This document shows, piece after piece, positions 11,394 through 51,246 of a DNA stretch of 64,000 bases. Below the pieces are notes generated by a model. It worked only from the letters and a program-made list of their open reading frames with translations, made no database searches and was not told the DNA's origin. Made by a program: the position numbers and the translations under genes. Source of the DNA: Ruminococcus sp. Its GTDB lineage: Bacteria > Bacillota > Clostridia > Oscillospirales > Ruminococcaceae. The stretch lies in the NCBI GenBank assembly GCA_017478965.1, contig JAFVCV010000038.1, positions 23,977-87,976 on the forward strand. Reading direction: 5' to 3'. Each line of letters begins with the position of its first letter. Position 1 is the stretch's first letter.

Positions 11394-11396
11394 AAG

Positions 11397-12035: not shown

Positions 12036-12065
12036 AAAAATTCATGCCCTTTGCTATAATTATAC

Positions 12066-12094: not shown

Positions 12095-12224
12095 TACATA
12101 GTTAACAGGACAAGACGTTCATGAACGCTCTGCCCCCTTCGGGGCAGAAAACAATCGAATATGCGGCAAGGGGCGGGACGGCCGCCCTTTGCCGGAAGGC
12201 GGACGGTGCCTTCGATCACGGCTG

Positions 12225-12440: not shown

Positions 12441-12556
12441 CGGTACAGCGGCGCTCTGGCCAGAAAACGGTCAGACAGCCGCAGGTCACGAGGTATTGAT
12501 CGTACTGCAAAATAAGGCTCCGGGAAAGTTTATATCCCGTGGGTCCTGGTTTGTTG

Positions 12557-12597
12557 TGCCTTCTTTTCCTTGCGGGAATGAGGGCATTTTGTTTCTC
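12557..12597 (+). terminator. Possible riboswitch expression-platform terminator (attenuator)
   Basis: An imperfect hairpin pairs TGCCTTCTTTTCC with GGAATGAGGGCA and is followed by TTTTGTTTCTCT. It lies between the aptamer and the first gene. Confidence 0.45.
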
Positions 12598-12638
12598 TAC
12601 GATCCCATACCCCTTTTCAGGAAAGGAATGGATCAAAA

Positions 12639-13730: not shown

Positions 13731-13815
13731 GGACCAGGCAAACGGTATATCATTCCCCCCGGACAAAAACGGGGGGAAATGTATATCCGGCAAAAACGAA
13801 AAGGGAGTGCTTTGA

Positions 13816-14790: not shown

Positions 14791-14792
14791 TA

Positions 14793-15944: not shown

Positions 15945-15959
15945 GCGGGGTGAGGACCG

Positions 15960-18553: not shown

Positions 18554-18705
18554 GAATTGATAATGGGTCACTATGCGTTTGCGTCAGAGTGACCGGCCGT
18601 ATGAGGAAACGGCAGGCCTTTGGAAGGCATATGAGTTATTGATAAAAAGTTTGAAGATGAGCTGCCCGGGGCGGGAAAATGGTCCTGGGAAAAGGAGGTT
18701 CGTTG

Positions 18706-20772: not shown

Positions 20773-20823
20773 TCTTCGGGGCTTTGGAAAAGATCAGTGA
20801 CGGGAAATAAGGGAGGGCACTCG

Positions 20824-21801: not shown

Positions 21802-21804
21802 GAT

Positions 21805-23571
21805 ATGAGCCATGAGAATATGATAACTGCCGATGAGAACATTCACGTTATCCGACAGAAATTGAACGATATAATAGACGATCCCAAGATAGCCAAGCTG
21901 CTCGGGGCGGACAGCGTAAGTCAGCTGAAGGAATATGACGGGCTGATAGCAAAGAAGTGCGAGGAACCTTTCACGCTCGTTATACTGGGCGAGTTCAAGA
22001 GAGGCAAGAGCACCATAATAAACGCCCTTTTAGGGAAAAATATCGAGCCTATCAACGTTACGCCGGAGACCTATACCATAAACGAGATAACCTTCGGGCA
22101 TATACAGAGCGTGGAGGCGATCCTGGAGAACGGGCAGAGGGTGCCTCTGGTGCTGGAGGATATCACCAGGGAGAACCTGGAGAAGCGCATGAAGCTTTTT
22201 CCCGCAAGGATAAGCAGCGTTCAGATAAAGGACAATGCGCCCATACTCAGGGACATAAGGATAGTAGATACGCCGGGGCTCTCGGACTTAGAGAGCTTGG
22301 ACAAGCAGGTGGAGGAGTATATAGTCAATGCGGACGCTATAATGTATGCGGCCTCATGTCTGCTGCCTTTTTCGGAGACTGAGCAGATATTCCTCGGCAG
22401 CCATGTGCAGCCACAGAGGTTCGGTATGCTGTATGTGCTGGTGAACATGATAGACGCACTGAATTCCATGGCGGACGTCAATAAGATCATGCGAAGGTTC
22501 AGGGGCATCGCTGAGAGGATAGTTCCGAATGCCATAGTTTACGGCATAAGCGGCGGCGATGAGCTAAGCAGAAAGCTCGGGAAGGACAGGCCTGCCGACA
22601 AGGGGACCAGGGAGTTCTATGAGACGCAGTTCCTACAGTTCGAGCTTTCGCTGAAAAGGGACATCATCATGCAGAAGGACGTCATAAGGAGCCAGAGGGT
22701 CTACACCATGCTCGATCAGATGCAGGCTGAGATAAGCTCCAAATTGCAGCTCCTGAGCGACATGACCGAGATGGACAAGCAGAAGCTGGAGCAGAAGGCT
22801 CTGGAGTTCGAGCAGCAGTGCGACGAGCTGGCGGCGGCACTGGAGAAGAAAAAGCCTGTGATACATCTTTCCATACTGGAGATGCAGCAGGAGGCCGAGA
22901 GCTGGATGTATGAGTTCTTCGCAAAGCTCAGGACCAGCATACTGGAATGCAGGGCAAAGGATGAAAACGGCGAGGACATCTATTCGCCGGAGGATATAGA
23001 GAAGTATTTCTATTCATTCCTGATGGAGAAGGTGGGCGAGGCCTACAGGCTCTGTATAGAAACTCACCGTGACAGGGTAGGGGAGCTGGTGGAAAAGACC
23101 GGCAGAGATCTGGCACAGACCCTTGGGATATCCGATATGGCAGAGGTCAGCAAGGCGCCGTCGGTGGACAGGATAATGATGTCAATGAACAAGAACGTCA
23201 CCAGGAGCGTCATGGGCGTAAAGCTCTTCGGCACAAGCGAGAATTTCCCGCCGGCGGCCATGAGCATTTTCAGCAGCATAATGAAAAAGAAAATGCAGAC
23301 CGATATCATTGATATCGCTCTGGAGAACTATGACGAGATAAGAATAAACATCGTCAAGGATATAAAGACCGTTTATCAGGACCTGGAGGTAAAGGCCATA
23401 TCCAGGCTTGACAGCCTTTATCAGTATCAGGTCGAGATGAGCAGAGACGCTATCGCCAAGGCCAAGGCCATGGCGGAGAGCGGCGACAACGCCGAACTCA
23501 ACGCCACCTTGCAGGAGGCTATAGAAAGGCTCAGAGAGCCTAAACGTATGCTGGCCGAGCAGGGATTGTGA
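21805..23571 (+). CDS. Bacterial dynamin-like GTPase 2 (DLP2), with no obvious transmembrane segment
   Basis: It has the G1 motif LVILGEFKRGKSTIINALLG, the G3 motif IVDTPGLSD and a long predicted coiled-coil/stalk C-terminal half. A GGAGGG RBS lies upstream. Confidence 0.85.
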   Translation: MSHENMITADENIHVIRQKLNDIIDDPKIAKLLGADSVSQLKEYDGLIAKKCEEPFTLVILGEFKRGKSTIINALLGKNIEPINVTPETYTINEITFGHIQSVEAILENGQRVPLVLEDITRENLEKRMKLFPARISSVQIKDNAPILRDIRIVDTPGLSDLESLDKQVEEYIVNADAIMYAASCLLPFSETEQIFLGSHVQPQRFGMLYVLVNMIDALNSMADVNKIMRRFRGIAERIVPNAIVYGISGGDELSRKLGKDRPADKGTREFYETQFLQFELSLKRDIIMQKDVIRSQRVYTMLDQMQAEISSKLQLLSDMTEMDKQKLEQKALEFEQQCDELAAALEKKKPVIHLSILEMQQEAESWMYEFFAKLRTSILECRAKDENGEDIYSPEDIEKYFYSFLMEKVGEAYRLCIETHRDRVGELVEKTGRDLAQTLGISDMAEVSKAPSVDRIMMSMNKNVTRSVMGVKLFGTSENFPPAAMSIFSSIMKKKMQTDIIDIALENYDEIRINIVKDIKTVYQDLEVKAISRLDSLYQYQVEMSRDAIAKAKAMAESGDNAELNATLQEAIERLREPKRMLAEQGL

Positions 23572-27800: not shown

Positions 27801-28859
27801 ATGGAGTATCTGGAAAATGACCCCATCAGGCTCAGTGCTGACAGGACCGCAGTGGAGGTGATAGACCAGCGGCTGCTGCCGGGGGAGCTGAGATGGGTGA
27901 GCCTTCGGTCTGCCGGAGAGGTGGCTGAGGCTATCCGGACCCTTGCTGTCAGGGGGGCGCCGCTTATAGGTATATGTGCGGCCTATGGGATATGTATAGC
28001 GGCGGCAAAGGCCCTGAGGGAGGACCGGGAGCATTTTTTTGAAAGGTTCAAAACTGACAGCCTTGTCATAAGCGGCGCAAGGCCTACGGCGGTGGACCCT
28101 TACCATGCGGCGCAAAGGCTCAGAAGAAGGCTGGAGAGACAGCGCTCTGCCGGACACGGACCGGAGGAGATAACCGAGGGGCTGTTTGAGGAGGCAGTAA
28201 GTCTCCATGAGGAGGAGATAAGGACCTGCCTTGCCATCTCAGAGCTGGGGCTTACGCTTATAAAGGACGGCAGCACCGTCATTACCCACTGCAACGCCGG
28301 GGCCATGGCCACCGGGCGCTATGGCACGGGGCTGGGACCGCTGCTTTTAGGGGCGGAGAAGGGGTATACCTTCCACGCCTATGTGGACGAGACCAGACCT
28401 CTTTTACAGGGGGCCAGGATAACGGCCTTCGAGCTGATGAGGGCAGGGGTGGACACTACGCTGATGTGCGACGATATGGCGGCTTATGTAATGGCGCAGG
28501 GAAAGACTGACGCCTGCATGGTGGGCTGCGACAGGGTGGCTGTCAACGGAGACACTGCCAACAAGATAGGCACCTGCGGACTTGCGGTCCTGGCTAAGCA
28601 TTACGGAGTGCCGTTTTATGTATTCTGTCCGGTGTCCACCATCGACCTTTGCTGTAAGACCGGAGCGGACATACAGATCGAGATGAGAGACGGCAGAGAG
28701 ATCACCGGGCTTTATTTTGAAAAGCCTGTGGCTCCGGAGGGGGTCAGGTGTCTGGACCCGTCCTTTGACGTTACGCCCGCAGAGCTGATAACTGCCATAG
28801 TCACCGAGAGAGGGATATTCTATCCGCCCTATGACTTTTCGGCCTTCGGGAAGGGATAA
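27801..28859 (+). CDS. mtnA: S-methyl-5-thioribose-1-phosphate isomerase-like protein (eIF-2B alpha/beta/delta family, MtnA-like)
   Basis: Motifs VIDQRLLPGE, VRGAPLIGICAAYG, THCNAGAMAT, ETRPLLQGARITAFEL and GCDRVAVNGDTANKIGT are present. Confidence 0.8.
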   Translation: MEYLENDPIRLSADRTAVEVIDQRLLPGELRWVSLRSAGEVAEAIRTLAVRGAPLIGICAAYGICIAAAKALREDREHFFERFKTDSLVISGARPTAVDPYHAAQRLRRRLERQRSAGHGPEEITEGLFEEAVSLHEEEIRTCLAISELGLTLIKDGSTVITHCNAGAMATGRYGTGLGPLLLGAEKGYTFHAYVDETRPLLQGARITAFELMRAGVDTTLMCDDMAAYVMAQGKTDACMVGCDRVAVNGDTANKIGTCGLAVLAKHYGVPFYVFCPVSTIDLCCKTGADIQIEMRDGREITGLYFEKPVAPEGVRCLDPSFDVTPAELITAIVTERGIFYPPYDFSAFGKG

Positions 28860-38337: not shown

Positions 38338-38366
38338 TTGAAATGAAGGGGCAAAAATGTTATTAT
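38338..38366 (+). promoter_or_regulatory. Candidate promoter of the TM1266-type regulator gene
   Basis: TTGAAA (38338-38343), a 17-nt spacer, then TGtTATTAT (38361-38366), inside an AT-rich intergenic region. Confidence 0.4.
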
Positions 38367-38431: not shown

Positions 38432-38677
38432 ATGGAGACAAGAGTTGCTGTTATCGCAATAATAGTTGAGAATGAAAGCTCCGTTGAGGGAGTGAACGCA
38501 CTGCTGCATGAGTACAGCAGCGGTATCATCGGGCGCATGGGCGTTCCCTACAGGGCCAAGGGCGTGAACATCATCAGTATTGCCGTTGACGCCGAGCAGG
38601 ACGTTATTAACACTCTTGCCGGGAAGATAGGCAGGCTCGAGGGCGTTACCGCAAAGACTGTGTATTCGTCTGTATAA
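38432..38677 (+). CDS. TM1266-family putative iron-only hydrogenase system regulator (small ACT/NikR-C-like protein)
   Basis: This 81-aa protein, METRVAVIAIIVEN...LLHEYSSGIIGRMGVPYR...NIISIAVDA...LAGKIGRLEGV, matches my recollection of the TIGR03959-type family found next to hydEFG genes. Its position next to hydF/hydE agrees with this. Confidence 0.7.
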   Translation: METRVAVIAIIVENESSVEGVNALLHEYSSGIIGRMGVPYRAKGVNIISIAVDAEQDVINTLAGKIGRLEGVTAKTVYSSV

Positions 38678-38931
38678 ATGGCGTTTTACAGTACTGGAAA
38701 AAGTTTGTTTGATCGAATTTGATAATTAAAAACCTCCTGACGCCGAAATTTTATTGAGGTGAAAGCGGGATCATACCGAAGTCTGTACATAGGCGGCGGC
38801 TGCAGGGTGATGCGGCGCCGGCGGGCAGGCTTGCTTTGCAGCGGTCAGATCTCTGTTGAACAGGTGATCTGGCTGTTTCTTTTTTGACGAAAACTGCGTC
38901 ACAGCGAGTTTTTAAAGCGGAGAGTGATATT

Positions 38932-40143
38932 ATGGGACTTAACGATACGCCATCGGGGGAGAGGGTACATATAGGGTTTTTCGGCAGGCGCAATGCCGGC
39001 AAGTCCAGTGTGGTCAATGCCTTCACCGGGCAGGAGCTGGCAGTGGTATCCGACACCGCCGGGACCACTACGGACCCGGTCTACAAGGCCATGGAGCTGC
39101 TGCCGATGGGGCCGGTGATGATAATAGACACCCCCGGCTACGACGACGAGGGGAAGCTGGGGGAACTGAGGGTGAAAAAGACCGCTCAGGTCCTTGGGAA
39201 GACCGACTGCGCTGTGCTCGTCGTTGATGCAACGGCAGAGATGGGTGCCTGCGAGGAGCAGCTCGTTGAGCTTTTTGAGAAGAAAAAAATACCTTACATC
39301 ATTACGGTGAACAAGTGCGATCTCTTAGAGAATGTGCCTGAAAATGACGAGGTGCGCATATACGTGAGCGCCAAGGAAAAAATAAACATAACAAAGCTCA
39401 AAGAGCGGGCGGCCCGCCTGGTGAACGTGAGGGAGGAGCAGCGAAGGCTGGTGGGGGACCTTGTTGAGCCGGGAGAATATGCGGTACTGTGCATACCCAT
39501 AGACAAGGCCGCTCCTAAGGGCAGGCTCATACTTCCGCAGCAGCAGGTCATAAGGGACTTGCTGGAGGCCGGGGCCGGAGCCTTCACCTGCCGGGAGACT
39601 GAGCTGAAAGCCTTCCTGTCATCTGCGGCGGCAAGACCTAAAATGGTCATCACTGACAGCCAGGTCTTTGCCAGAGCCGATGCTGACACCCCTAAGGACA
39701 TAAAGCTCACCTCATTCTCCATACTGATGGCCAGATACAAGGGCTTTCTTGACCTTGCAGTCAGAGGGGCCTATGCCATTGATAAGCTCAGAGACGGCGA
39801 CAGAGTGCTGATCTCGGAGGGCTGTACCCACCACCGGCAGTGCGAGGATATCGGCACTGTCAAGCTGCCGAAGCTGCTGAAAAAATACACCGGCGCAGAG
39901 CTGGAGCTTGTTTTCAGCTCAGGGCGTGATTTCCCGGAGGATATGAGCAGCTTTGCCCTTTGCATACACTGCGGAGGATGTATGCTCAATGCCAGGGAGA
40001 TGAACAGCCGTATGCAGACCGTGGAGGACTGCGGGGTGCCGGTGACGAATTACGGCATCGCCATCGCCTACATGAACGGCATACTGAGAAGGAGCCTGGA
40101 GGTACTGCCGGAGACTCTGAAACTGCTTGACGGCGAAGACTGA
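38932..40143 (+). CDS. hydF: [FeFe]-hydrogenase H-cluster maturation GTPase HydF
   Basis: It has G1 GRRNAGKSS, G3 DTPG and G4 NKCD. The C-terminal cluster-binding motif is CTHH...HCGGC. Confidence 0.9.
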   Translation: MGLNDTPSGERVHIGFFGRRNAGKSSVVNAFTGQELAVVSDTAGTTTDPVYKAMELLPMGPVMIIDTPGYDDEGKLGELRVKKTAQVLGKTDCAVLVVDATAEMGACEEQLVELFEKKKIPYIITVNKCDLLENVPENDEVRIYVSAKEKINITKLKERAARLVNVREEQRRLVGDLVEPGEYAVLCIPIDKAAPKGRLILPQQQVIRDLLEAGAGAFTCRETELKAFLSSAAARPKMVITDSQVFARADADTPKDIKLTSFSILMARYKGFLDLAVRGAYAIDKLRDGDRVLISEGCTHHRQCEDIGTVKLPKLLKKYTGAELELVFSSGRDFPEDMSSFALCIHCGGCMLNAREMNSRMQTVEDCGVPVTNYGIAIAYMNGILRRSLEVLPETLKLLDGED

Positions 40144-40162
40144 TTTTACGGAGCGTGATAGA

Positions 40163-41236
40163 ATGACCGCAGCGACCACAGTAAGGGACCTTATCGACAG
40201 GCTGGAGGAGGACAGGGAGCTGAGCCTTGAACAGTGGGAAAGGGTCTTTAAGGAATGGACCGAGGAGGACAGGCTCTATGCCGCCGAAAAGGCCAGGCGG
40301 ACGGCCCTGGAAAACTTCGGGAACAAGATATATATAAGGGGCATAGTCGAATTTTCAAATATCTGTAAGAACGATTGCCTTTACTGCGGCATAAGGGCCT
40401 CAAACAAGGAAGTATCCAGGTACAGGCTCACTGAGGAGGAGATACTCCAGTGCTGCGATGAGGGCTACGGGTACGGTTTTCGCACCTTCGTGCTGCAAAG
40501 CGGAGAGGACAGGTATTTCACCGCCGAAATACTTGCGGGGATCGTCAGGAAGATAAAGGCCGCCCACCCGGACTGTGCGGTGACGCTGTCAGTGGGGGAG
40601 CTTGGGTATGACGAGTATAAGCTGCTGAAGGAGGCCGGGGCAGACAGATATCTGCTAAGGCACGAAACGGCGGACAAGGAGCATTACGGCAGGCTCCACC
40701 CGCCCCAGATGTCCTGGGAGCACAGAATGAGGTGCTTAGAGCAGCTCATGGAGCTGGGTTATCAGGTGGGTGCCGGGATAATGGTAGGCTCGCCCTACCA
40801 GACCGAGAGGTGTCTGGCGGAGGATATGGTCTTTCTGGGGAGCTTTAAACCCCACATGATCGGCATAGGGCCTTTTCTGCCTCATAAGGACACGCCCTTT
40901 AAGGATATGCCTAAGGGTCCCTATGAGCTGACGCTGTTTTTGCTCTCCCTTTGCAGGCTCATGCTGCCGAGGGTCCTGCTGCCGGCCACCACGGCCCTCG
41001 GGACCATCAGGCCGAACGGCCGTGAGCAGGGAGTGCTCTGCGGGGCCAATGTCATCATGCCGAACCTGTCGCCTACGGCGGTGAGGAAGAAATATATGCT
41101 CTACGACAACAAAATCTGTACCGGGGACGAAAGCGCTCAGTGCAGGAGCTGTCTTGAAAGGAGAATGGCTGCCATCGGATACGAGGTCGCCATAACAAGG
41201 GGAGATCATCATGATAAAATTTGCGATATACGGTAA
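40163..41236 (+). CDS. hydE: [FeFe]-hydrogenase H-cluster radical SAM maturase HydE
   Basis: It has the CX3CX2C motif CKNDCLYCG, BioB-like architecture, and [13 protein letters not shown] and IMVGSP motifs. It is adjacent to hydF. Confidence 0.85.
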
Positions 41237-41981
41237 GGGCGGCATAGGAAAGTCCACCATGGCCTGCAATATCTCGGCTGCACTGGCTCTAAAAGGCATG
41301 AGGGTCATGCAGATAGGCTGCGATCCCAAGGCCGATTCCACTTCGCTTCTGCACGGAGGCGAAAGGGTGAGAACGGTGCTGGAACTCATAAGGGAAAAGG
41401 GCGTCGGCAAGGTAGAGCTGGAGGAAACGGTCCATGTCAGTGAACAGGGAGTCATCTGTGTGGAAGCCGGGGGACCCGTACCGGGCCTGGGCTGTGCAGG
41501 CAGGGGCATCATCAGCGCCCTGGAGACTCTGGAAAGACTTGGGGCTTATGAGAAGTACAGGCCGGATGTGGTCATTTACGACGTTCTGGGGGACGTGGTA
41601 TGCGGAGGATTTTCAATGCCTATGAGAAAGGGCTATGCGGATAAGGTCTTCGTAGTGACCTCCGGAGAGAAGATGTCAAGATATGCTGCTGCCAATATCT
41701 GTATGGCAGTGGAAAATTTTAAGGGCAGGGGCTATGCTGCCCTGGGGGGGATCATCCTCAATCGGCGCAGCGTTGCCGGGGAAGATGAGAGCGTGGCCGA
41801 GCTGGCGGAGGATTTCTCCACCAAGGTCATCGGCACCGTGGACCGCAGCGAGGACATCACCGCCGCAGAGGAGAAGGGACAGACCCTTGTGACAGTCTGT
41901 CCTGAAAGCAGGGCAGCCTGCCAGATAAGGGAGACGGCGGAAAGGATAGTTCAGATATGCGGGGGGAAGAGCGATGCTTAA
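41211..41981 (+). CDS. Nitrogenase iron protein-like ATPase (NifH/BchL/CfbC family), copy 1
   Basis: Motifs are [10 protein letters not shown] (P-loop), CDPKADST (switch I), GCAGRG and DVVCGGF (the two [4Fe-4S] Cys). The start overlaps the hydE 3' end by 26 nt and follows AAGGGGAG. Confidence 0.9.
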
Positions 41982-43308
41982 AGATATGCAGAGCTATGAA
42001 AGGCCGCCCTTTGTCACCGTTGATGAGGCTCCGGAGGGGGACCATTTTGCGGGGGGACTGGAGTATAATCCCCCGGCGAGAGGGGTCTGGAACATCGTCC
42101 ATACGGGTATGCTCATACCTGGGGCCCATCAGATATTCGTATGCGCACAGGGCTGTCTCAGGGGCGTTATACTTACCGCCGCAGAGATGGGTATGCTAGA
42201 CAGGCTCAGCTGGGTGTCCGTGTCGGAGGAGGATATGTTCGACGGGACCCTGGAGAGCGATGTTGTGGAAGGAACTGCTGAGATAATCCAAAAGCTCCCG
42301 GAGCGGCCTTCGGAGGTACTGCTGTTTCTGAGCTGCATACATCTTTTTGCCGGGGCGGACTTTGAAGAGATCATCAGGGAGCTTGGCGTAAGGTTTGAGG
42401 ATATCCATTTTACTGACTGCTATATGACGCCCACCATGAGAAAGACCGTCAGCCCCGATGCTAAGATGCGGACACAGCTTTATGAGGGCCTGCGGGCCTG
42501 TCCGATAGATCCGAAGTCTGTGAATATCATAGGCTGCGACAGGCCTACGGACGAAAGCTCTGAGCTGGTGAGGATAATAAAGGAAAACGGCTTTGTGCTA
42601 AGAGACATCACCCAGGCGAAAAGCTATGAGGATTATCAGCAGATGGCAAAGGCGGCTTTCAGCGTGACATATCTTCCGACGGCAAAGGGAGCCGGGGACA
42701 GGCTCAGCGAGCGCTTCGGCAGCAGGAACATCTATATCCCCAACAGGTTCGACCCACAGGGCATAAGGGAGGAACTTTCAAAGCTCTGCGAGGCGCTGGG
42801 AGTTGAGCTGCCAAAGCTGGATGAAGAGGAGAAAAAAGCTATGGAGGCCCTTGAAAAGGCGAGGGAGCTTATCGGGGACACTGCGGTGGCGATAGACTTC
42901 ACTGCGGTCACAAGGCCCTATGAGCTGGCAAAGCTTTTGTGTGAAAAGGGATTCAATGTCAGATATATCGTCAACGATGTACTTGGCGAGGACGTGGAAG
43001 CATTCCGCTGGCTGAAGAAAAACCGGCCCGGGATAAAGATATTCTCGGCCCTGAACGTCAATATGCTCAATGCTGCGGAAAGTGCGGAAAAGTCCGGCGA
43101 GACGGTACTGGCGGTGGGGCAGAAGGCAGCCTTCTTTTTCGCCACGGATAATTTTGTGAACATCGTGGCCAACGGAGGCTATTACGGTTTTAGCGGCATA
43201 AAGGCTATCGCAGAGCTGATGTGCGGCGCTTTCACGGTACCTAAGGACCGCAGGACGGTCATCCAGCATAAGGGCATAGGCTGTTATTCCTGCGTTTATC
43301 AGGACTGA
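41974..43308 (+). CDS. Nitrogenase component-1-like subunit (NifD/NifE/BchN-type), set 1
   Basis: This 444-aa protein has Cys motifs [10 protein letters not shown] and LFLSCIHLF and Rossmann-like repeats typical of the Oxidored_nitro family. It overlaps the preceding NifH-like gene by 8 nt. Confidence 0.72.
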
Positions 43309-43329
43309 CCAAGGATAAGGGGACTGGAT

Positions 43330-44466
43330 ATGAAAAACGTTTCTACTGTCATTCCCTGCTATGCGGCGGATACCTCCGGGGTCTGCTCGGCTCTTTATGA
43401 GCTGGGAGGACTGACGGTGGTCCATGACGCATCGGGATGCAATTCCACCTATTCGACACATGACGAGCCCAGGTGGTACGATAAAAGGTCAATGATATAT
43501 ATTTCTGCCTTAACGGAGATGGACGCCGTTATGGGAAACGATGAAAAGCTCATCCTTGACACCGTGGCGGCAGCGGCGGACCTGCGGCCGGAGTTCATAA
43601 CTCTCTGCGGGTCTCCAATGCCGATGATGACCGGTTTTGATTACGATGCGGCGGCGGCTGAGATAGAGGAAAGGTCCGGGATAAAATGTCTTCCCATGCA
43701 CACCAACGGCACCAGGTCCTATATCGAGGGAGCATCGGAGGCGTTTCTGGCGGCAGTGAAGGCCTTTGCCAAAGAGGGACCCAAGGTGGAAAACGGCGTT
43801 GCGGTCCTGGGGGCCACGCCGCTGGACTTCGGTCTGAGCGGAAGTATCGGGAGCATAAGGACCTGGCTCGGGGAACGGGGCTTTGAGACAGTTTCCTGCC
43901 TGGCTGTGGACAGTTCTTTCAAGGATCTGGAAAGGGCCGCACTGGCTAAGGTCAGCCTGGTGGTGTCCCAGTCGGGACTGGCGGCGGCGAAGTATCTGGA
44001 AAAGGAGTTCGGGATACCCTATGTCTGCGGGGTCCCCTACGGGAAGAAGTATGCAGAGCGGGTGGAAAGGTATCTGAGATGGGCCATGGAGGACAATGAG
44101 ACTGACTGGGTGGACGAGCGCAGCGGCAGGGACTTCGACACCGTGGTCATCGGTGAAACGGTGTCGGCATTTTCACTTTGCTCCGCCCTTTACTGGGACC
44201 TTGGCATAGACGCCGCAGTGATATGTCCGCTGCCGTATGAGGAAGGCAGGCTGGGCCGGGACCTTGCAATGAGCGCCGAGGAGGACATAAAGGCATTTCT
44301 GGAGGAATGCAGGCCCGCCAGAGTCATTGCGGACCCGCTGTACAGATACGTGGTGCCAAAGGACACAAGGCTCACAGAGCTGCCGCATTTCGCATTTTCG
44401 GGGCGGTGTTTCGGGCAAAGGATACCCGACCTTATAAATAAGGATATCAAGGAGTTTTTTGAATGA
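43330..44466 (+). CDS. Nitrogenase component-1-like subunit (NifK/NifN/BchB-type), set 1
   Basis: This 378-aa protein carries [26 protein letters not shown] and [13 protein letters not shown], an Oxidored_nitro-type pattern. It is paralogous to the protein at 46513-47550. Confidence 0.72.
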
Positions 44467-45224
44467 TAAAGCTGGCAATTTACGGTAAGGGCGGTATAGG
44501 GAAATCCACCTGCACCGCCAACTTAGCGGCGGCCTTCGCCACACTGGGAAAGCGGGTCATACAGATAGGCTGTGACCCCAAGGCGGATTCGACCATTAAT
44601 ATCCTGGGCGGGACCCCGGTCATGCCTGTGATGGACCATATGAGAGAGCATGACGAGGAGCCTAAGACTATAGAGGAGATCTCCAGGTCAGGATTCGGCG
44701 GCATACTCTGTATAGAGACCGGAGGCCCCACGCCGGGCCTTGGCTGCGCAGGCCGGGGCATAATCACGACATTTTCTCTGCTGGAGGAGCTGGAGCTTTT
44801 TGAGAAGTTCAAGCCTGACGTGGTGCTTTACGACGTGTTGGGAGACGTGGTCTGCGGCGGCTTTGCGGCGCCCATAAGAGAGGGCTATGCCGATAAGGTG
44901 CTGATAGTTACCTCAGGGGAAAAGATGGCGCTTTACGCCGCCAATAACATCAGCAAGGCGGTGAAGAATTTCGAGGACCGCAGCTACGCCAAGGTCAGGG
45001 GGATGATCCTGAACCGCCGCAGCGTAGAGAACGAAGAGGAGAAGGTCAGGGCATTTGCCGAAAGCGCCGGGCTGGACATCGTGGCGGATATACCAAGATC
45101 CGCAGATATAATAAAGTATGAGGACATGGGAAAGACCGTCATTGAGGGGGACCCTCAGTGCGAGACTTCACAGCGGTTCTTTGAGCTGGCAAGGCTTCTC
45201 ATAAGAGAGGAGGAGGGCCGGTGA
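44463..45224 (+). CDS. Nitrogenase iron protein-like ATPase (NifH/BchL/CfbC family), copy 2
   Basis: Motifs [24 protein letters not shown] and DVVCGGF are present. The start overlaps the preceding gene as ATGA. Confidence 0.9.
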
Positions 45225-46516
45225 GGGAGGCTTTTTATATAACGGCCAAGGACCTGAGCGCCCGAGGGCCTGAGAATATCCCCGGCGAGCTGCAAAGTGC
45301 AAAGCATATGATCTACAGCTCGCCTGCCACTCTGGACTTCAATTCTCCGGGAGCAAAGGGCTTTGGGGTAAAGCGGGCCGGACTGGCGGTGCCGGGTTCG
45401 GTGATGCTGCTGGTGGCGCCGGGGTGCTGCGGAAGGAATACGGCGCTGCTCAACGAGCTTGGCTACAGCGAGAGATTTTTCTATCTTCTTCTTGACGACA
45501 CCGACATCGTTACCGGCAGGCATCTGACGAAGATCCCGGCGGCCTGTGAAGAGATCTGTGAGGAGCTCGGGGATAAGCCCTCGGCCATAATGATCTGTAT
45601 AACCTGCGTTGACGCTCTGCTGGGGACGGATATGGAAAGAGTCTGCCGCAAATGCGAGGAAAAGACCGGGGTCCCGGCGGTGCCGGCCTATATGTATGCG
45701 CTCACCAGGGAGAAGAGACTTCCTCCCATGGCGGCGGTGAGAAAGTCGGTGTATTCCCTTTTGAGACCCCAGGCAAGAAAGAGCAATGAGTGCGCTCTGA
45801 TGGGCTATTTTGCACCAATGGAGGACGGCTGTGAGATATATGAGCTGCTGAGAAAAGCCGGGATAAAAAAGATACACGAGCTGGGAAGATGCCGGACCTT
45901 TGAGGAATACAGCATGATATCAAGGGCGAATTTCAGCCTGGTGCTGAACCCGGAGGCCAGATATGCCGCACAGGATATGCAGGACCGGTTAGGGATACCG
46001 TTTATCGAGATGGTAAGGCTTTACAGGCTGGACAAGATAAGAAACCAGTACAGGCTCTTAGGGCAGGCCATCGGGGCAGAGCTCGACGATGGGGAATATT
46101 ACGAAAAGGCCCGCAGGACCGTGGAAGATTTCAGGGAGAAGTACAAAGCGCTGACTTTCGCAGTGGGAGAGTCTCTCAATGCTGACAGCTTTGAGTTAGC
46201 GCTCTCGCTGTTAAGCTTCGGGTTCAAGGTAAGCGAGATCTACGGCACCGTGGGAGAGCGCAATTTCGTTTTCGTCAGAAAGCTCGCAGAGCTTTCTCCC
46301 GACACCAGGATATTCTCGAACCTTTCGCCCACCATGATGAACTATGAGCGAAGGACCGGGATAGATGCTGTTATCGGGGCTGACGCCGGCTATTATCATA
46401 AGGACCTGCCCTGTGTGCAGTTCAATGACGAGAAACAGCCCTTCGGCTATTTCGGGGTCATAAAGCTATTCACAGAGCTGGATAAAGCCCTGGAGGGCAG
46501 GAGGGAGAGACAATGA
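45221..46516 (+). CDS. Nitrogenase component-1-like subunit (NifD/NifE/BchN-type), set 2
   Basis: This 431-aa protein has Cys motifs VAPGCCGRN and [12 protein letters not shown]. The GTG start overlaps the NifH-like copy 2 stop (GTGA) and follows GAGGAGGAGGG. Confidence 0.68.
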
Positions 46517-47550
46517 AAAAGCTTTTGAAACATATCTCGCCTTTAGCCCCGGACGATTCGGGGGCCTGCTCGGTGCTTTATGAAATGGGCGGAATAACCG
46601 TGATCTGTGACGCCGGGGGCTGTGCGGGGAACGTATGCGGGTTTGACGAACCCAGGTGGTCTGAGAAACCGTCGGCGCTCTTCAGTGCAGGACTCAGGGA
46701 TATGGACGCTATACTGGGCCGTGACGACAGGCTGGTGGAAAAGCTGACGAAATGCTGTGAGCAGGTAGATGGCCGCTTCACTGCCATCGTGGGGACGCCT
46801 GTGCCGGCGGTCATAGCCACGGACTACAAGGCTCTGAAAAGAATGGCTGAGAAAAAGACCGGGCTGCCCTGCATAACTGTTCCCACAGACGGCACCAGGC
46901 TTTACGACTGCGGGGAGGAGCGGGCTTATATGGCCCTTTTCGAGGAATTTGCAGTGAAGAGACACGAGGTGAAAAAAGGCCGGGCGGCAGTTATCGGAGC
47001 AACGCCCCTTGACACCGGTTTTTTAAGGGCGGATAAGCTCATCGGGAACGTCAGGGCGATGGGTCTTGATGAAGTCGTCTGCATAGGCCTTGACAGCGGT
47101 CTTGAAGAGGTGGAGAACATCTCATCGGCAGAAAAGCTCATCGTCATATCTCCTGCCGGGATAAGGCCGGCGGGATATCTGCACGAGAAATTCGGTACAG
47201 AGGTCATTTACGCTTACCCCTGTCTGCCGGAGGAGGTCGTGAGTGAATGTAAAAAACTCAGGGGTAAAAAGGTGCTTATCATCCATGAACAGATGGCTGC
47301 CAACGCCCTGAGGGAGCTTATAGAGGAAGATAATCAGGCGGACTGTGCTACATTCTTTATGGCGGAGGAGAGCCTTTCAAAGCCGGGGGATATCAAGATC
47401 GCCGGTGAAGACGACCTCAGGGAAAAGACCGCTCAACGGGGATATGAGGTCATCGTAGCTGACAAATTCTTTTCAAGGGCCTTGGGGGGATTTGAAGGGC
47501 AGTGGATAGATTTTCCCCACAACGCCGCCTCTGGCAGACTGAGACAGTAA
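46513..47550 (+). CDS. Nitrogenase component-1-like subunit (NifK/NifN/BchB-type), set 2
   Basis: This 345-aa protein carries DDSGACSVLYEMGGITVICDAGGCAGNVCGFDEPRW, clearly paralogous to 43330-44466. The start overlaps the preceding gene as ATGA. Confidence 0.72.
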   Translation: MKKLLKHISPLAPDDSGACSVLYEMGGITVICDAGGCAGNVCGFDEPRWSEKPSALFSAGLRDMDAILGRDDRLVEKLTKCCEQVDGRFTAIVGTPVPAVIATDYKALKRMAEKKTGLPCITVPTDGTRLYDCGEERAYMALFEEFAVKRHEVKKGRAAVIGATPLDTGFLRADKLIGNVRAMGLDEVVCIGLDSGLEEVENISSAEKLIVISPAGIRPAGYLHEKFGTEVIYAYPCLPEEVVSECKKLRGKKVLIIHEQMAANALRELIEEDNQADCATFFMAEESLSKPGDIKIAGEDDLREKTAQRGYEVIVADKFFSRALGGFEGQWIDFPHNAASGRLRQ

Positions 47551-47562
47551 ACGCCGGTAACA

Positions 47563-49911
47563 ATGGGGATCTTTAAGGACGGTGAGGGATTGAAGGCTTA
47601 CAATATACACGTTTACGGCATCGTGCAGGGTGTGGGGTTCAGACCCTTCACTGCGGTCACTGCGGACCGCCTGGGCATCAGGGGGACGGTGGCCAACAAA
47701 GGGTCCTATGTGGATATCTTCGCTTATGGAGAAGAGGAGGACGTCAGGGCTTTCGCAGAGGAGATAAGGGAAAGGCCCCCGGAAAGGGCCATGGTCCTGG
47801 GGGTCGATCTTATAGAGCTTGCTGAGGGCCGGGGAAAAGTACCGGAGAGCTTTGAGATAATCGAGAGCGAAAAGGAGTACGGGGACATTTTCGTATCTCC
47901 GGATATCGCCACCTGCGACAGCTGCCGGAGGGAGCTTTTCGACCCTGAGGACCGCAGGTATCTCCACCCTTTCATAAACTGCACCCAGTGCGGTCCCAGG
48001 CTGACCATACTTGACACCATGCCCTACGACAGGATAAGGACTTCCATGGGAGAATTTCCCATGTGCGAAAAATGCGCAGCTGAATACAACGACCCGGTCA
48101 CAAGGCGCTATGACGCACAGCCGGTGTGCTGCAACGACTGCGGACCGGAGGTCTATATCATCGGGGAGGACCTCAGGGGCGCCGAGGCTATAAAAAAAGT
48201 CCGCCGGGCCATAATGGAGGGGAAGATAGCTGCCATAAAGGGCATAGGCGGCTTTCACTTATGCTGCGACGCTAAGAACAGCCGTGCAGCGGCCAGGCTC
48301 AGAGAGCTCAAAAGCAGGCCCGCCAAGCCCTTTGCGGTCATGATGAGGGATATGGACACGGTAAGCAGATACTGCCGCCTTAAACCGGGGCAGGAGGCTT
48401 ATCTGACCGGCTGGCAGAAACCGATAATGCTACTGGAGAAAAAAGAGGGCTGCGGCCTTTGTGACGAGGTGGCACCGGGCAACCCAACGGTGGGGGTCAT
48501 GCTGCCTTATGCTCCTGTGCAGATGCTGTTATTCGGCTATCCGGACGGAACGGAGATGACGGACTGCCTTATCATGACCAGCGGGAATGTCAGAGGAGCG
48601 CCCATCTGCCGCAGTGACGAGGACGCAGTGAAGGAGATAGGGAGCTTTTGCGACACTATCCTTTCCCACAACAGGAAGATACTGATACGCTCCGACGACA
48701 GCGTCACCGACTGGCTTTTTGACAGGCCCTATATGATAAGGCGCTCAAGGGGATTTGCGCCCCTGCCGGTCATGATGAAGGAGCGCTCTGACAGGCAGGT
48801 GCTTGCCATCGGCGGCGAGCTGAAAAACACCTTCTGCATAGGCCGGGGGGGACTGCTGTACCCCTCCTCTTATGTGGGCGACATGGGGGATATACGCACC
48901 GTGAAGGCTCTGGAGGAAAGCATAAGGCGTATGTGCGGACTGCTGGAGACTGAGCCGGAGCTGATAGTCTGCGACAAGCACCCTAAGTATAATACAGTCC
49001 GATTCGCCAAAGAGCTGGCTGAGCAGCGGGGAGTGCCTTTGCTGGAAGTACAGCACCACTACGCTCATGTGCTGAGCGTCATGGCGGAGAATCGGGTAAG
49101 GCCGGAGACAAAGGTGATAGGTCTGAGCTTTGACGGCACCGGCTACGGCGATGACGGGACCGTCTGGGGGGGAGAGATCTTCCTGTGCGACGGCAGGAGC
49201 TATGAGCGCCGGGGCAGCGTCAAGTCCTTTATGCAGGTCGGCGGCGATCTGAGCGCTAAGGAGGGATGGAGGATAGCGGCGGCTGTACTAAAAGACTTTG
49301 CCGGGGACGCACAGGAGCTTGTTGAAAGCCTGGGGCTTTGCACACCGCAGGAATACAGGCTCCTTGGGACCATGGCCGACAAGGGTCTCAACAGCGTAAG
49401 GTCCACCAGCTGCGGAAGGCTTTTTGACGGCGTTTCAGCCATACTTGGCATCAGGCGAAGCTCGACTTTCGAGGGTGAGGCCTCTACGGCGCTGATGTTT
49501 GAGGCAGAGGCCTTTGAGAAGGAAAACGGGGGCCGGGAGGAGTATGAGGGGCAGGAAAAGCTCATCAGGTATGAGGACGGTTTTGTTACCCTTTGCACCT
49601 CGGCGCTGCTGACGGATATCGCCAGGAAATTCTCGAAGGACCCACGTCCTGAGAACGCCCGGAGGCTTGCCTACAGGTTCCATGCAGTTTTAGCGGATAT
49701 GGCGGCGGAGGCCTGCGGAAGGCTCATGGCGGACAGCGGCGTAAGGCTCTGTGCCCTGACGGGGGGAGTATTCCAGAACCGGCTGCTCACAAGGCTCTGT
49801 CGGGAAAGACTCGAAAAGGCCGGGGCGGAGGTGCTCCTTCACAGCCTTATACCGCCCAATGACGGCGGGCTGGCCTTAGGACAGGCCTATTACGGGATAT
49901 ACAGTAAATAA
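47563..49911 (+). CDS. hypF: Carbamoyltransferase HypF
   Basis: It has an acylphosphatase domain (VYGIVQGVGFRPF) and two zinc-finger pairs (CDSC...CTQCGPR, CEKC...CNDCGP). A YrdC-like domain (IKGIGGFHL) and a Kae1-like C-terminal domain are also present. Confidence 0.92.
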   Translation: MGIFKDGEGLKAYNIHVYGIVQGVGFRPFTAVTADRLGIRGTVANKGSYVDIFAYGEEEDVRAFAEEIRERPPERAMVLGVDLIELAEGRGKVPESFEIIESEKEYGDIFVSPDIATCDSCRRELFDPEDRRYLHPFINCTQCGPRLTILDTMPYDRIRTSMGEFPMCEKCAAEYNDPVTRRYDAQPVCCNDCGPEVYIIGEDLRGAEAIKKVRRAIMEGKIAAIKGIGGFHLCCDAKNSRAAARLRELKSRPAKPFAVMMRDMDTVSRYCRLKPGQEAYLTGWQKPIMLLEKKEGCGLCDEVAPGNPTVGVMLPYAPVQMLLFGYPDGTEMTDCLIMTSGNVRGAPICRSDEDAVKEIGSFCDTILSHNRKILIRSDDSVTDWLFDRPYMIRRSRGFAPLPVMMKERSDRQVLAIGGELKNTFCIGRGGLLYPSSYVGDMGDIRTVKALEESIRRMCGLLETEPELIVCDKHPKYNTVRFAKELAEQRGVPLLEVQHHYAHVLSVMAENRVRPETKVIGLSFDGTGYGDDGTVWGGEIFLCDGRSYERRGSVKSFMQVGGDLSAKEGWRIAAAVLKDFAGDAQELVESLGLCTPQEYRLLGTMADKGLNSVRSTSCGRLFDGVSAILGIRRSSTFEGEASTALMFEAEAFEKENGGREEYEGQEKLIRYEDGFVTLCTSALLTDIARKFSKDPRPENARRLAYRFHAVLADMAAEACGRLMADSGVRLCALTGGVFQNRLLTRLCRERLEKAGAEVLLHSLIPPNDGGLALGQAYYGIYSK

Positions 49912-49931
49912 ATTTCAAGGAGGATAAATAT

Positions 49932-50141
49932 ATGTGTGTTGGATTGTCTGCAAAGGTAGTCAGCGTTAAGGACGGTACTGCGGTCATAGACGCCAGCGGT
50001 GCAAAGAGAGAGGTCAGCGCTGACCTTTTAGAGGAGCTGGAGCCTGGGGATTATGTGATGGTACACGCTGGGGTAGCCATCGCCAAGATCACCCAGAGCG
50101 ATGATGAAGAAACTGAGACTCTGCTTGAGGACCTGATATGA
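49932..50141 (+). CDS. hypC: Hydrogenase maturation chaperone HypC/HupF family
   Basis: This 69-aa protein starts MCVG (conserved Cys2) and contains GDYVMVHAG. Confidence 0.85.
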   Translation: MCVGLSAKVVSVKDGTAVIDASGAKREVSADLLEELEPGDYVMVHAGVAIAKITQSDDEETETLLEDLI

Positions 50142-51190
50142 ACGAGAGCATCAAAAACGCCCGTGACATCATCACGGGCTACAAGGGAAGAAAACTAAGG
50201 ATAATGGAGGTCTGCGGCACCCATACCCACGAGATCTTCCGTTTAGGCATCAGAAAGCTACTGCCGGAGCAGGTGGACCTCATCTCGGGACCGGGCTGTC
50301 CGGTGTGCGTTACTGCGGTGGGCTTTATCGACGAGGCTGTCTGGCTGACCCTGGAGAAAGGCTGCACGGTCTGCACCTTCGGAGATCTTATCAGGGTACC
50401 GGGGACGGAGATGAGCCTGGCCGGGGCAAGGTCTGAGGGCGGTAAGATAAAGGCGGTCTACTCGCCCCTGGACGCTGTGGACTTTGCCGAGAAGGAACCG
50501 CAGGAGCAGGTGGTGTTCCTTGCAGTGGGCTTTGAGACCACTACGCCCTCGGCCTGCCTTGCGGTGAAGACTGCGCAGAAAAAGGGGCTGAAAAACTTCA
50601 GTATCCTCACTGCCAACAAGACCATGCCCAACGCCTATAACGCTCTGGTGGGAAGTGCAGACGCATTTCTATACCCGGGCCATGTGAACGCCATCACCGG
50701 CAACGCAGTCTGCAAAAAGCTCTGCGAGGATAAGGGCGTTTCAGGAGTGGTGGCAGGATTTACGGCAGGGGAGCTGCTGACGGCAATGGCGGTGACGCTG
50801 ACCCTTGCTGACAAGGGGGAGCCATTTTTCAGGAACTGCTACCCCAGAGTGGTGAAGGACGAGGGCAATATCCCCGCACAAAAGCTCATCGCAGAGGTTA
50901 TGGAGCCTTGCGACAGCGAATGGAGGGGGTTAGGGCTTATCCCCATGTCGGGCATGAGACTGAGGGAGGAGTATGCTGAGTTCGACGCCCGCAAGAAGTA
51001 CCGGATGCCAAAGATCACCGGCCGGCCCAACCCGGCCTGCCGCTGCGGCGATGTTTTGCAGGGCAAGTGCAAGCCCTCGGACTGCAAGGTCTTCGGCAAG
51101 GTCTGCACCCCCCAGCACCCCATCGGCGCCTGCATGGTCTCCGATGAAGGAGCCTGTTCGGCATACTATCAGTATTCAGGCCTGGTCTGA
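50138..51190 (+). CDS. hypD: Hydrogenase formation protein HypD
   Basis: Motifs MEVCGTHTH, GPGCPVCV, GFETT and PGHVNAITG are present, along with a C-terminal Cys cluster (CRCG...CKPSDC...CTP...GACMVSDEGAC). The start overlaps hypC as ATGA. Confidence 0.92.
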   Translation: MNESIKNARDIITGYKGRKLRIMEVCGTHTHEIFRLGIRKLLPEQVDLISGPGCPVCVTAVGFIDEAVWLTLEKGCTVCTFGDLIRVPGTEMSLAGARSEGGKIKAVYSPLDAVDFAEKEPQEQVVFLAVGFETTTPSACLAVKTAQKKGLKNFSILTANKTMPNAYNALVGSADAFLYPGHVNAITGNAVCKKLCEDKGVSGVVAGFTAGELLTAMAVTLTLADKGEPFFRNCYPRVVKDEGNIPAQKLIAEVMEPCDSEWRGLGLIPMSGMRLREEYAEFDARKKYRMPKITGRPNPACRCGDVLQGKCKPSDCKVFGKVCTPQHPIGACMVSDEGACSAYYQYSGLV

Positions 51191-51205
51191 TACTTTACAC
51201 AGCAT

Positions 51206-51246
51206 AAAAATAAGCCGGAGTTCGCCTGAACTCCGGCCTTTTCGTT
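51206..51246. terminator. Bidirectional terminator between hypD and the convergent DUF1015 gene
   Basis: GCCGGAGTT (51214-51222) pairs with AACTCCGGC (51229-51237). AAAAA lies upstream and CTTTTCGTTT lies downstream. Confidence 0.78.

Follow-up and report, generated by a model that had tools for sequence, protein, structure and literature searches.

A composite Ruminococcus operon joining [FeFe]- and [NiFe]-type hydrogenase maturases to two nitrogenase-like protein trios

A 64-kb stretch of a Ruminococcus sp. genome (GenBank assembly GCA_017478965.1, contig JAFVCV010000038.1, positions 23,977 to 87,976; the whole stretch is hereafter called the window) carries a single tight block of genes in which maturases of the [FeFe]-hydrogenase type (HydF, HydE) and of the [NiFe]-hydrogenase type (HypF, HypC, HypD) enclose two paralogous nitrogenase-like trios (H1-D1-K1 and H2-D2-K2), with no hydrogenase nearby, an arrangement first noticed in a reading of the letters and their translations (the sequence-only reading) and upheld here by the layout of open reading frames (ORFs) and by hidden Markov model (HMM) scans. 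This block represents the Ruminococcus-type form of a widely distributed composite operon built on an [FeFe]-maturase operon, in which the hydG slot is filled by two anciently duplicated trios and hypFCD. The system had been noticed only in passing and never characterised, and it is a nitrogenase-like system with an unprecedented accessory set. We propose, at a probability of roughly 0.4, that the operon encodes an ATP-driven assembly line and host for an iron cofactor ligated by carbon monoxide and cyanide (CO/CN), the nitrogenase-like complexes being functionally coupled to the maturases.

Gene content, conservation and modularity

The genes lie on the forward strand between 38.4 and 51.2 kb in the order TM1266, hydF, hydE, H1, D1, K1, H2, D2, K2, hypF, hypC, hypD; the ORF layout reproduced this previously read order of 12 genes together with all junction distances. 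Families were named for all 12 proteins with NCBIfam models at their curated cut-offs and Pfam models at their gathering scores. The names D and K are positional, as alpha-like and beta-like identities are ambiguous in HMM, PDB and Foldseek comparisons.

38338 to 38366, forward strand: best match to a sigma-70-like promoter, upstream of TM1266 (TTGAAA, 17 nt, TATTAT, with an extended -10 TG; 10 of 12 hexamer positions; a consensus match only)
38432 to 38677, forward strand: TM1266-family protein of 81 aa, "iron-only hydrogenase system putative regulator" (TIGR03959 108.6 bits, cut-off 60.8; PF21699; PDB 2nzc, E = 2e-12)
38932 to 40143, forward strand: HydF (TIGR03918 548.5 bits, cut-off 325.6; HydF_dimer and HydF_tetramer domains; P-loop, CTHH and HCGGC motifs)
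40163 to 41236, forward strand: HydE, radical S-adenosylmethionine (SAM) H-cluster maturase (TIGR03956 550 bits, cut-off 254.6; CX3CX2C motif CKNDCLYC)
41211 to 41981, forward strand: H1, NifH-like ATPase/[4Fe-4S] protein of trio 1 (nifH 304.6 bits, below the cut-off of 394; PF00142 287 bits)
41974 to 43308, forward strand: D1, component-1-fold subunit of trio 1 (PF00148 70 bits; best PDB match NifE, E = 6e-4; AlphaFold 2 (AF2) mean predicted local distance difference test (pLDDT) 82.9)
43330 to 44466, forward strand: K1, second component-1-fold subunit of trio 1 (PF00148 104 bits; best PDB match 9p1x_A, E = 1.3e-10, also NifE)
44463 to 45224, forward strand: H2, NifH-like ATPase/[4Fe-4S] protein of trio 2 (nifH 312.4 and CfbC 298.7 bits, both below cut-off; PF00142 297 bits)
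45221 to 46516, forward strand: D2, component-1-fold subunit of trio 2 (PF00148 99 bits; best PDB match 9p1x_A, E = 1.2e-12; AF2 pLDDT 81.7)
46513 to 47550, forward strand: K2, second component-1-fold subunit of trio 2 (PF00148 64 bits)
47563 to 49911, forward strand: HypF, carbamoyltransferase (TIGR00143 722 bits, cut-off 466; acylphosphatase, zf-HYPF, YrdC and Kae1-like domains)
49932 to 50141, forward strand: HypC chaperone (TIGR00074 61.4 bits, cut-off 48; begins MC, with Cys2 present)
50138 to 51190, forward strand: HypD scaffold (TIGR00075 405.5 bits, cut-off 192.8; CGTHTH (CGxHxH), GPGCPVC and GFETT motifs)
51212 to 51239, no single strand: strong bidirectional intrinsic terminator at the operon end (stems of 10-12 bp, 7 GC pairs, T-runs on both strands), common to the convergent DUF1015 gene

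TM1266, HydF, HydE, HypF, HypC and HypD all score above their curated NCBIfam cut-offs. HydF and HydE are [FeFe] maturases by equivalog score and cluster-binding motifs, and HypF, HypC and HypD are [NiFe] maturases by equivalog or subfamily score and signature motifs. The hydF ORF opens with TTG at 38884, but the ATG at 38932 is the likelier start and replaces it. Junctions are tight throughout: the hydF stop (40143) and the hydE ATG (40163) are 19 nt apart; hydE overlaps H1 by 26 nt and H1 overlaps D1 by 8 nt; D1 and K1 are separated by 21 nt; K1/H2, H2/D2 and D2/K2 overlap by 4 nt each; gaps of 12 and 20 nt lead from K2 to hypF and from hypF to hypC; and hypC and hypD overlap by 4 nt. The earlier statement that the only terminator follows hypD holds between hydF and hypD, where the terminator at the operon end is the sole strong one, but for a unit that begins at TM1266 it has to be amended by a second, terminator-like hairpin at 38842-38885.

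HMM scans of the window returned no HydA, [NiFe] subunit, HydG, HypE, HypA/B or NifB, confirming across 64 kb the list of absences drawn up from the sequence. HypE is the acceptor of the HypF carbamoyl group, and without a HypE in 64 kb the HypCDEF set of the window is incomplete; hypD is followed directly by the terminator and the convergent DUF1015 gene (51191-51245), with no hypE there. The reported lack of HypE is true of the window and peculiar to its source genome: HypE, ending in PRIC, was present in 36 of the 37 related loci with at least 1.1 kb after hypD, and its absence here is an exception, not a property of the system.

A profile search with D1 through a one-genome-per-species collection gave 234 matching stretches, the best 80 of which were examined and their neighbours tabulated by phmmer; an exhaustive HMMER search grouped the D1 relatives into 210 clusters at 50% identity (E ≤ 1e-30). 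Hosts were mostly Ruminococcus and Oscillospiraceae of rumen and gut, and also included Clostridium ljungdahlii, C. ragsdalei, a Lachnospiraceae, Lentisphaeria and Intestinimonas. The prevailing architecture was TM1266-HydF-HydE-H1-D1-K1-H2-D2-K2-HypF-HypC-HypD-HypE. Among 54 loci whose sequence extends 10.5 kb or more past the D1 start, 49 had all of K1, H2, D2, K2 and HypF; among 51 reaching 4 kb or more upstream of H1, TM1266 was present in 47, HydE in 37 and HydF in 31. Of these partners, HydE and HydF are facultative. In 52 of 52 loci the next ORF opened no further than 300 nt past the hydE stop, and independent gene calls with Pfam labels gave the same cluster in R. albus and Ruminococcus sp. 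NK3A76. HydG was found within 10 kb of no cluster examined, and NifB, NifV and NifX were missing from every annotated context examined. Because the arrangement recurs in dozens of species, it is not a product of chance; an adjacency unique to this genome, which would have told against the sequence-only reading, is contradicted by its conservation across the loci with sufficient flank.

Some loci hold additional genes without a Pfam match. Between hydF and hydE, two to six tandem paralogous ORFs of ~170-220 aa occur in R. albus (locus L081, 2657-4546) and in loci L001-L009; R. albus 7 has an additional hypothetical gene, Rumal_0553, between hypF and hypC. A conserved ORF of ~190 aa without a Pfam match stands directly upstream of TM1266 in 11 Ruminococcus loci (e.g. 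L037, 5989-6567; L084, 6011-6565) and is not in the window.

More distant D1 relatives reveal the modules from which the operon is built, trio 1 being the hub of one of them. It occurs as TM1266-H1-D1-K1 only (L085), as TM1266-HydE-H1-D1-K1-HydF (L090), in a third arrangement (L080, L086, L087) that runs from a FecCD permease through an ABC ATPase with a fused TM1266-like domain to HydE-H1-D1-K1 and a Peripla_BP_2 binding protein, in some cases with HydF as well, and, in L088, as FecCD-ABC-H1-D1-K1-binding protein. C. ljungdahlii, C. ragsdalei and L089 have H2-D2-K2-HypF-HypC-HypD-HypE before (TM1266)-H1-D1-K1. Trio 2 thus goes with HypFCDE and trio 1 with TM1266, HydE, HydF and sometimes a FecCD-type ABC importer (module A being trio 1 with HydE/HydF), and the window fuses both modules. 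The C-terminal TM1266-like domain on the ABC ATPase (L080, 7027-8160; L086, 7076-8188; L087, 7017-8192; all in FecCD/HydE/H1-D1-K1/binding-protein operons) suggests, by analogy with the regulatory domains of other ABC ATPases, that TM1266-like domains may bind a small ligand.

The nitrogenase-like trios

The six nitrogenase-like proteins belong to the nitrogenase superfamily (PF00142 and PF00148 above gathering scores) and to no curated family within it. H1 and H2 qualify as NifH-type Fe proteins by sequence, with the P-loop GKGGIGKS and the [4Fe-4S] cysteines C95 and C131 (C97 and C132 of NifH) invariant in 78 H1 and 64 H2 orthologues, and H2 matches C. pasteurianum NifH at 255.7 bits. Among 60-80 orthologues, D1 has invariant C57, C61, C121 and C437 and a nearly invariant C149, and ends in a Cys-rich tail (KGxGC-x-x-C, or CC in other lineages) that is predicted to be disordered. 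K1 keeps C19, C93 and C360 in at least 90% of orthologues, D2 has invariant C69, C70, C126, C129, C142 and C224, and K2 has a conserved Cx4Cx4C (C32, C37, C42) together with C120 and C190. In alignments with NifD and NifE, several of these D/K cysteines coincide with P-cluster/[4Fe-4S] positions, at the inter-subunit cluster site. The position of the cofactor ligand NifD-Cys275 holds a cysteine in none of the four D/K proteins (Pro235 in D1, Asn243 in D2, VVSQSG in K1, VISPAG in K2).

Identity between the paralogues is 52% for H1/H2, 24% for D1/D2 and 29% for K1/K2, and profile-profile comparison (hhalign) gave E = 1e-38 for D1/D2 and 1e-67 for K1/K2; the pairwise likeness of H, D and K across the trios indicates that a whole trio was duplicated long ago. 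Positions conserved in at least 90% of orthologues number 196 of 431 in D2, 119 of 444 in D1 and 160 of 253 in H2, and by this measure of sequence conservation trio 2 is more constrained than trio 1, with D2 the most conserved protein of the set.

Placement of D and K within the superfamily was sought with models, solved chains and predicted structures. Their best NCBIfam scores were 21-66 bits (NifE, NifD, BchN/B and CfbD models) against cut-offs of 268-650, and their best PDB E-values ranged from 6e-4 to 1e-12. Foldseek matched the AF2 models of D1 and D2 to nitrogenase component-1 chains at a probability of 1.00, with about equal likeness to NifD/K, VnfD/K, AnfD/K, NifE/N, MarD/K and BchB (template modelling (TM) scores of 0.56-0.69 at 11-19% identity; 0.56-0.67 for D1 to Nif, Vnf, Anf, NifEN, Mar and BchB chains), and a structural assignment to one clade was rejected on this equal, weak similarity to all chain types. 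The D/K proteins look to be deep-branching, unclassified superfamily members by alignment and model, and the possibility that they fall inside a characterised clade, which would have undermined the sequence-only reading, finds no support in the low NCBIfam scores, the weak PDB E-values or the lack of a Foldseek-preferred subfamily.

Likeness to known systems is correspondingly partial. The trios resemble NifH with NifEN and NifDK in having a NifH-type ATPase with the P-loop and both [4Fe-4S] cysteines, and two paralogous component-1-fold hetero-pairs that keep the inter-subunit cluster cysteines and suggest a scaffold and an enzyme. They differ in having no Cys275-type cofactor ligand, no NifB, NifV or NifX, an H protein of its own for each trio, and Hyd/Hyp maturases as accessories; the identity of D/K to any solved chain is only 12-19%, and their scores lie an order of magnitude below cut-offs. 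The nifH model scored 305 and 312 bits (H1 and H2) against 394, and the models for nifD, nifK and the alternative alpha subunits gave no more than 33 bits where 427-823 are required, which excludes the NifHDK, VnfHDK and AnfHDK equivalogs. The nifE model scored 61, 66 and 38 bits for K1, D2 and K2 against 505 and did not match D1. Among the tetrapyrrole reductases (DPOR/COR), BchL reached 184 and 212 bits against 345 and BchN and BchB at most 51 against 420-490, with H1 and H2 also below the BchX cut-off. For CfbCD, CfbC scored 293 and 299 bits against 402 and methan_mark_13 16-19 against 268; CfbD is a single gene, whereas each trio here has two distinct component-1 genes, D and K. The Mar chains 9fmg_A/9d9u_A were undetected by D1 at E ≤ 1 and matched D2 at 0.046 and K1 at 3.4e-4, and no context holds a NifB homologue. 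Membership in Mar, Cfb, DPOR/COR and NifEN was rejected on these sequence scores.

The trios share with Mar, isethionate reductase and CfbCD the character of non-N2-fixing H plus D/K systems of anaerobes that would act as ATP-driven reductases, and some trio 1 relatives, like Mar-type systems, neighbour ABC importers. Small organosulfur compounds are the substrates of Mar and isethionate reductase (group IV nitrogenase-like), both of which have ABC transporters as neighbours (PMC13474568; PMC3464626). Mar requires the NifB homologue MarB and bears P-cluster-like and L-like clusters (PMC13474568), in contrast to the trios, which have no NifB with them. The operon resembles the HydE/HydF/HydG pathway in its equivalog-level HydE and HydF with intact motifs and in the same TM1266 and leader RNA, and departs from it in that nine other genes replace HydG in the operon and no HydA is nearby. 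Its likeness to the HypCDEF pathway lies in equivalog-level HypF, HypC and HypD with intact motifs and in the HypE of nearly all related loci, set against a window without a [NiFe] large or small subunit, HypA/B or an endopeptidase, as well as without HypE.

In the full-text literature search we found no characterisation of such a system, which bears out the earlier statement that no characterised system couples Hyd and Hyp maturases to nitrogenase-like proteins; the sole prior mention found was one sentence in Dos Santos et al. 2012 (PMC3464626). A 2026 Chem Rev review of nitrogenase-like proteins mentions no Hyp, Hyd, Ruminococcus or Coprococcus and considers genomic context of little help for uncharacterised nitrogenase-like groups (PMC13474568). 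A lead from Haft & Gwadz on selenoproteins was discarded, as their "organometallic" cluster belongs to another system, MerB/Mlp.

Leader RNA and the hydFEG backbone

Two RNA features lie between TM1266 and hydF.

38729 to 38773, forward strand: conserved leader RNA motif of 45 nt (CUGA, 4-bp stem P1, RAAA, variable loop, UUGA, P1', RAAG)
38842 to 38885, forward strand: terminator-like hairpin GGTCAGATCTCTG...CAGGTGATCTGGC then TGTTTCTTTTTT (-21 kcal/mol, with T-run)

P1 was paired in 96.9% of cases over 24 sequences and in 98.9% over 69 distinct ones; each of its four pairs varies on both sides, the observed score was reached by none of 500 shuffles, and slid controls collapse. Covariance model R1 gave 71 matches in 1.48 Mb, one per locus and all on the operon strand, and Rfam 15 returned no match to the leader either at the gathering threshold or at E ≤ 10. 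In 58 of 61 homologous intergenic regions TM1266 is followed by a comparable hairpin and T-run, and the hairpin at 38842-38885 is probably an attenuator between TM1266 and hydF. With a covarying structure, a fixed 5'-leader position and a downstream expression platform, the motif has the marks of a cis-regulatory leader RNA and is an unclassified, riboswitch-like candidate regulator. Pairing of the motif tail with the terminator as an antiterminator (AAAGUAAGA with UCUUACUUU) is visible in ~10 loci and overall no better than in shuffled controls (mean run 8.4 vs 8.0 shuffled; p ≤ 0.05 in 3 of 71 loci), and was set aside.

The leader reaches beyond the composite operon. An exact-pattern scan of metagenomes found 69 loci; the next same-strand gene is hydF in 35 of them, and at least 17 read TM1266-RNA-hydF-hydE-hydG without nitrogenase-like genes, the third gene of L150 being HydG at 917 bits. 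Because the same TM1266 and leader stand in hydF-hydE-hydG operons, the operon of the window is an ordinary maturase operon whose hydG slot is taken by the trios and hyp genes. Loci with module A alone have the motif upstream of TM1266 or a FecCD gene; leader and TM1266 head FecCD-type importer operons with trio 1 (L080, L086-L088, L112, L140, L151) and NMT1/THI5-type importer operons without nitrogenase-like genes (L129, L133, L137, L138, L154). Matches to the pattern in phage capsid regions (L091, L108) were treated as chance.

Published transcript data for R. albus 7 (Greening et al. 2019, PMC6776011 supplement; Rumal_0542-0556) give ~500 for the TM1266 homologue, even and low values of ~30-70 from HydF to HypD (Rumal_0543-0555) and ~104-125 for HypE (Rumal_0556), with fold changes of 1.0-1.2, not significant, between pure culture and H2-consuming co-culture. 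The TM1266 values are ~10 times those of the downstream genes, and the whole is consistent with a single transcription unit in which ~90% of transcripts end at the attenuator in those conditions, and with no H2 response. The same supplement holds a second nitrogenase component-1 pair beside an NMT1/THI5-like ABC transporter and a LysR regulator (Rumal_0519-0524), whose transcripts lie ~30-fold apart between two pure-culture replicates; it has the look of a sulfur-responsive system of the Mar type and is separate from the present cluster.

Proposed function, alternatives and other features of the window

What the maturases serve is sharpened by the hydrogenase inventory of cluster-bearing strains. 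Table S2 of PMC6776011 lists no [NiFe] hydrogenase in R. albus 7, 8, AR67, KH2T6 and SY3 or in Ruminococcaceae bacterium FB2012, and no hydrogenase of any class in Ruminococcus sp. NK3A76. Cluster genes are present in all of these, the complete cluster being read directly in AR67, KH2T6, FB2012 and NK3A76 and through locus tags in R. albus 7; the examined flank of R. albus 8 ends at HypD, and in SY3 only the D2 homologue was observed. With the cluster present and no matching hydrogenase listed, the Hyp proteins, and in NK3A76 the Hyd proteins also, are left without a conventional client. The HypCDEF genes beside the trios in Clostridium acetogens have been annotated as [NiFe] maturases although HypA/B are missing (PMC9431212). 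Among the rows listed in the R. albus 7 RNA-seq table, a look-up for HydG returned only ThiH, in a thiamine operon, and tblastn of the L150 HydG, against a plasmid collection only, gave no Ruminococcus record. Table S2 also gives "NifH = 1" with no hydrogenase for NK3A76, HUN007, R. albus AD2013 and R. flavefaciens AE3010, AE2021, KH2T8 and KHP2 (PMC6776011), and some of these calls may be cluster-type NifH-like genes and not nitrogenase.

The sequence-only reading offered two hypothetical roles for the nitrogenase-like complexes: scaffolds or reductases for an organometallic cofactor, or reductases whose own cofactor would need Hyd/Hyp-derived synthons. In the assembly line that we propose, HypF, HypC and HypD, with a HypE encoded elsewhere in the genome, would build an Fe(CN)x(CO) unit, and HydE and HydF would process and carry a related iron-carbonyl-cyanide fragment. 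H1 and H2 would be NifH-type ATP-dependent electron donors; D1K1, which travels with TM1266, HydE and HydF, might act like NifEN as a scaffold or reductase, and D2K2, which travels with HypF and is the most constrained pair, could be the final cofactor-bearing enzyme or a second scaffold, served by HypCD. A NifB-type cofactor is unlikely because neither NifB nor HydG occurs in the contexts examined and the Cys275 ligand is missing, which leaves Hyd and Hyp as the sole cofactor-biosynthesis genes. The tight conserved linkage, the pairing of modules, the intact H cysteines and P-loop, the extra invariant D/K cysteines (among them those of the flexible D1 tail), the lack of a conventional client in the strains listed above, the even, low transcription from HydF to HypD in R. 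albus 7 and the position in the hydG slot all argue for this proposal. Its more specific form, in which D2K2, possibly with D1K1, would be a nitrogenase-fold enzyme with an iron-carbonyl-cyanide active site made by HypCDEF and HydE/HydF, fed with electrons by a NifH-like ATPase and encoded in an operon under leader-RNA control, has in our view a fair but minority chance of being right; if true, it would add a new class of CO/CN-iron enzyme beyond the three known hydrogenase families.

Several observations weigh against the assembly line. HydE is missing from 14 and HydF from 20 of the 51 loci, and the Hyd link could be looser than the window suggests; module A also occurs without trio 2 or Hyp; and the importer operons under the same leader and TM1266 may mean that the association is partly regulatory and not mechanistic. 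The proposed chemistry needs HypE, of which the window is short, and the D/K proteins have no motif like the ligand sets of the [NiFe] large subunit or of the HydA H-cluster. The listing of NK3A76 without hydrogenase comes from one published homology screen, and HydE and HydF of the R. albus cluster could be housekeeping maturases of its [FeFe] hydrogenases.

The nitrogenase-like proteins might instead be maturases only, the trios and HypFCD(E) supplying or reducing an Fe-CO/CN synthon in place of HydG and HydE/HydF finishing the [2Fe] subcluster for a HydA encoded elsewhere. Such HydG-independent maturation of ordinary [FeFe] hydrogenases would explain why the trios and hyp genes stand exactly in the hydG slot of a TM1266-hydF-hydE-hydG backbone with its leader and why HydG is missing within 10 kb of every cluster, and it suits both the R. 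albus strains, which have active [FeFe] hydrogenases plus the cluster, and the module A of other Clostridia, with trio 1, HydE and HydF and without trio 2. It sits poorly with NK3A76, which has the full cluster and no listed hydrogenase, and with C. ljungdahlii and C. ragsdalei, where the trios and HypFCDE lie apart from HydE/HydF and a published survey reports atypical HydG-like genes; nine added genes are, moreover, a large replacement for one enzyme, and we consider this explanation unlikely. A purely regulatory association, in which the trios would be ATP-driven reductases for an unrelated, perhaps imported substrate (an iron chelate, a tetrapyrrole or an organosulfur compound) and share TM1266/leader control and a promoter with hydEF without exchanging intermediates, is a minority expectation of ours. 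It draws on the FecCD-type (with trio 1) and NMT1/THI5-type (no nitrogenase-like genes) importer operons headed by the same leader and TM1266, on the facultative nature of HydE and HydF, and on the organosulfur substrates and ABC transporter neighbours of the group IV relatives Mar and isethionate reductase (PMC13474568; PMC3464626), but it leaves unexplained why HypFCDE follows K2 in ~90% of loci in organisms without a [NiFe] hydrogenase and why the trios never have the NifB homologue of their characterised relatives, and the start/stop overlaps at hydE/H1 and at K2/hypF-type junctions suggest co-translated partners.

That the operon encodes a divergent true N2-fixing nitrogenase (HDK) with a NifEN-like maturase, its hydrogenase maturases serving H2 recycling, is extremely improbable. 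H1 and H2 do score highest with the nifH model and with C. pasteurianum NifH, and two trios formally resemble nifHDK plus nifEN, but all Nif equivalog scores are far under cut-off (D/K at most 66 bits against 427-653), D/K have no Cys275 ligand, NifB, NifV and NifX occur in no context, there is no hydrogenase for H2 recycling in R. albus-type ([NiFe]) or NK3A76 genomes, and rumen N2 fixation is reported to be negligible (PMC6776011). We reject a true nitrogenase on the HMM scores, the missing ligands and the missing NifB.

Dominant fibre degraders of the rumen (Ruminococcus, Oscillospiraceae) commonly have the cluster, which also occurs in the industrial, genetically tractable acetogens C. ljungdahlii and C. 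ragsdalei. To our knowledge, CO/CN-ligated iron occurs only in three hydrogenase families, and nitrogenase-fold proteins are known to us only with Fe-S or NifB-derived clusters or acting on tetrapyrroles; the proposed assembly line, if true, would join these two chemistries, extend both fields and give a function to the hyp genes of bacteria without [NiFe] hydrogenases. The system may also bear on the unresolved anaerobic source of the CO ligand, and where H1/H2-type genes are counted in, nifH-based surveys of gut and rumen may overestimate diazotrophy. A candidate discovery in its own right, the leader RNA is a putative new cis-regulator of hydrogenase maturation genes whose ligand would point to the chemistry of the pathway.

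Elsewhere in the window are genes for dynamin-like GTPases, ABC exporters, glycogen phosphorylase, DUF1015, SecA, ThrRS and RNase Y, as well as a cobalamin biosynthesis operon. A cobalamin riboswitch (12218-12449, forward strand, 68.9 bits) lies within the long cobalamin biosynthesis/salvage operon (1245-18078), which encodes CbiJ, CobB/CobQ-type amidotransferases, CobT, CobU, CobS, CbiB, CbiC and CbiK, followed by a Peripla_BP_2/FecCD/ABC importer. The dynamin-like GTPase genes at 18679-23571 (forward strand), of 697 and 588 aa, resemble a bacterial DynA-type pair and are interleaved with two unannotated ORFs (334 and 436 aa). MtnA, the S-methyl-5-thioribose-1-phosphate isomerase of methionine salvage, is encoded at 27801-28859 (forward strand) and adjoins cellobiose 2-epimerase-like and metallohydrolase-like genes.

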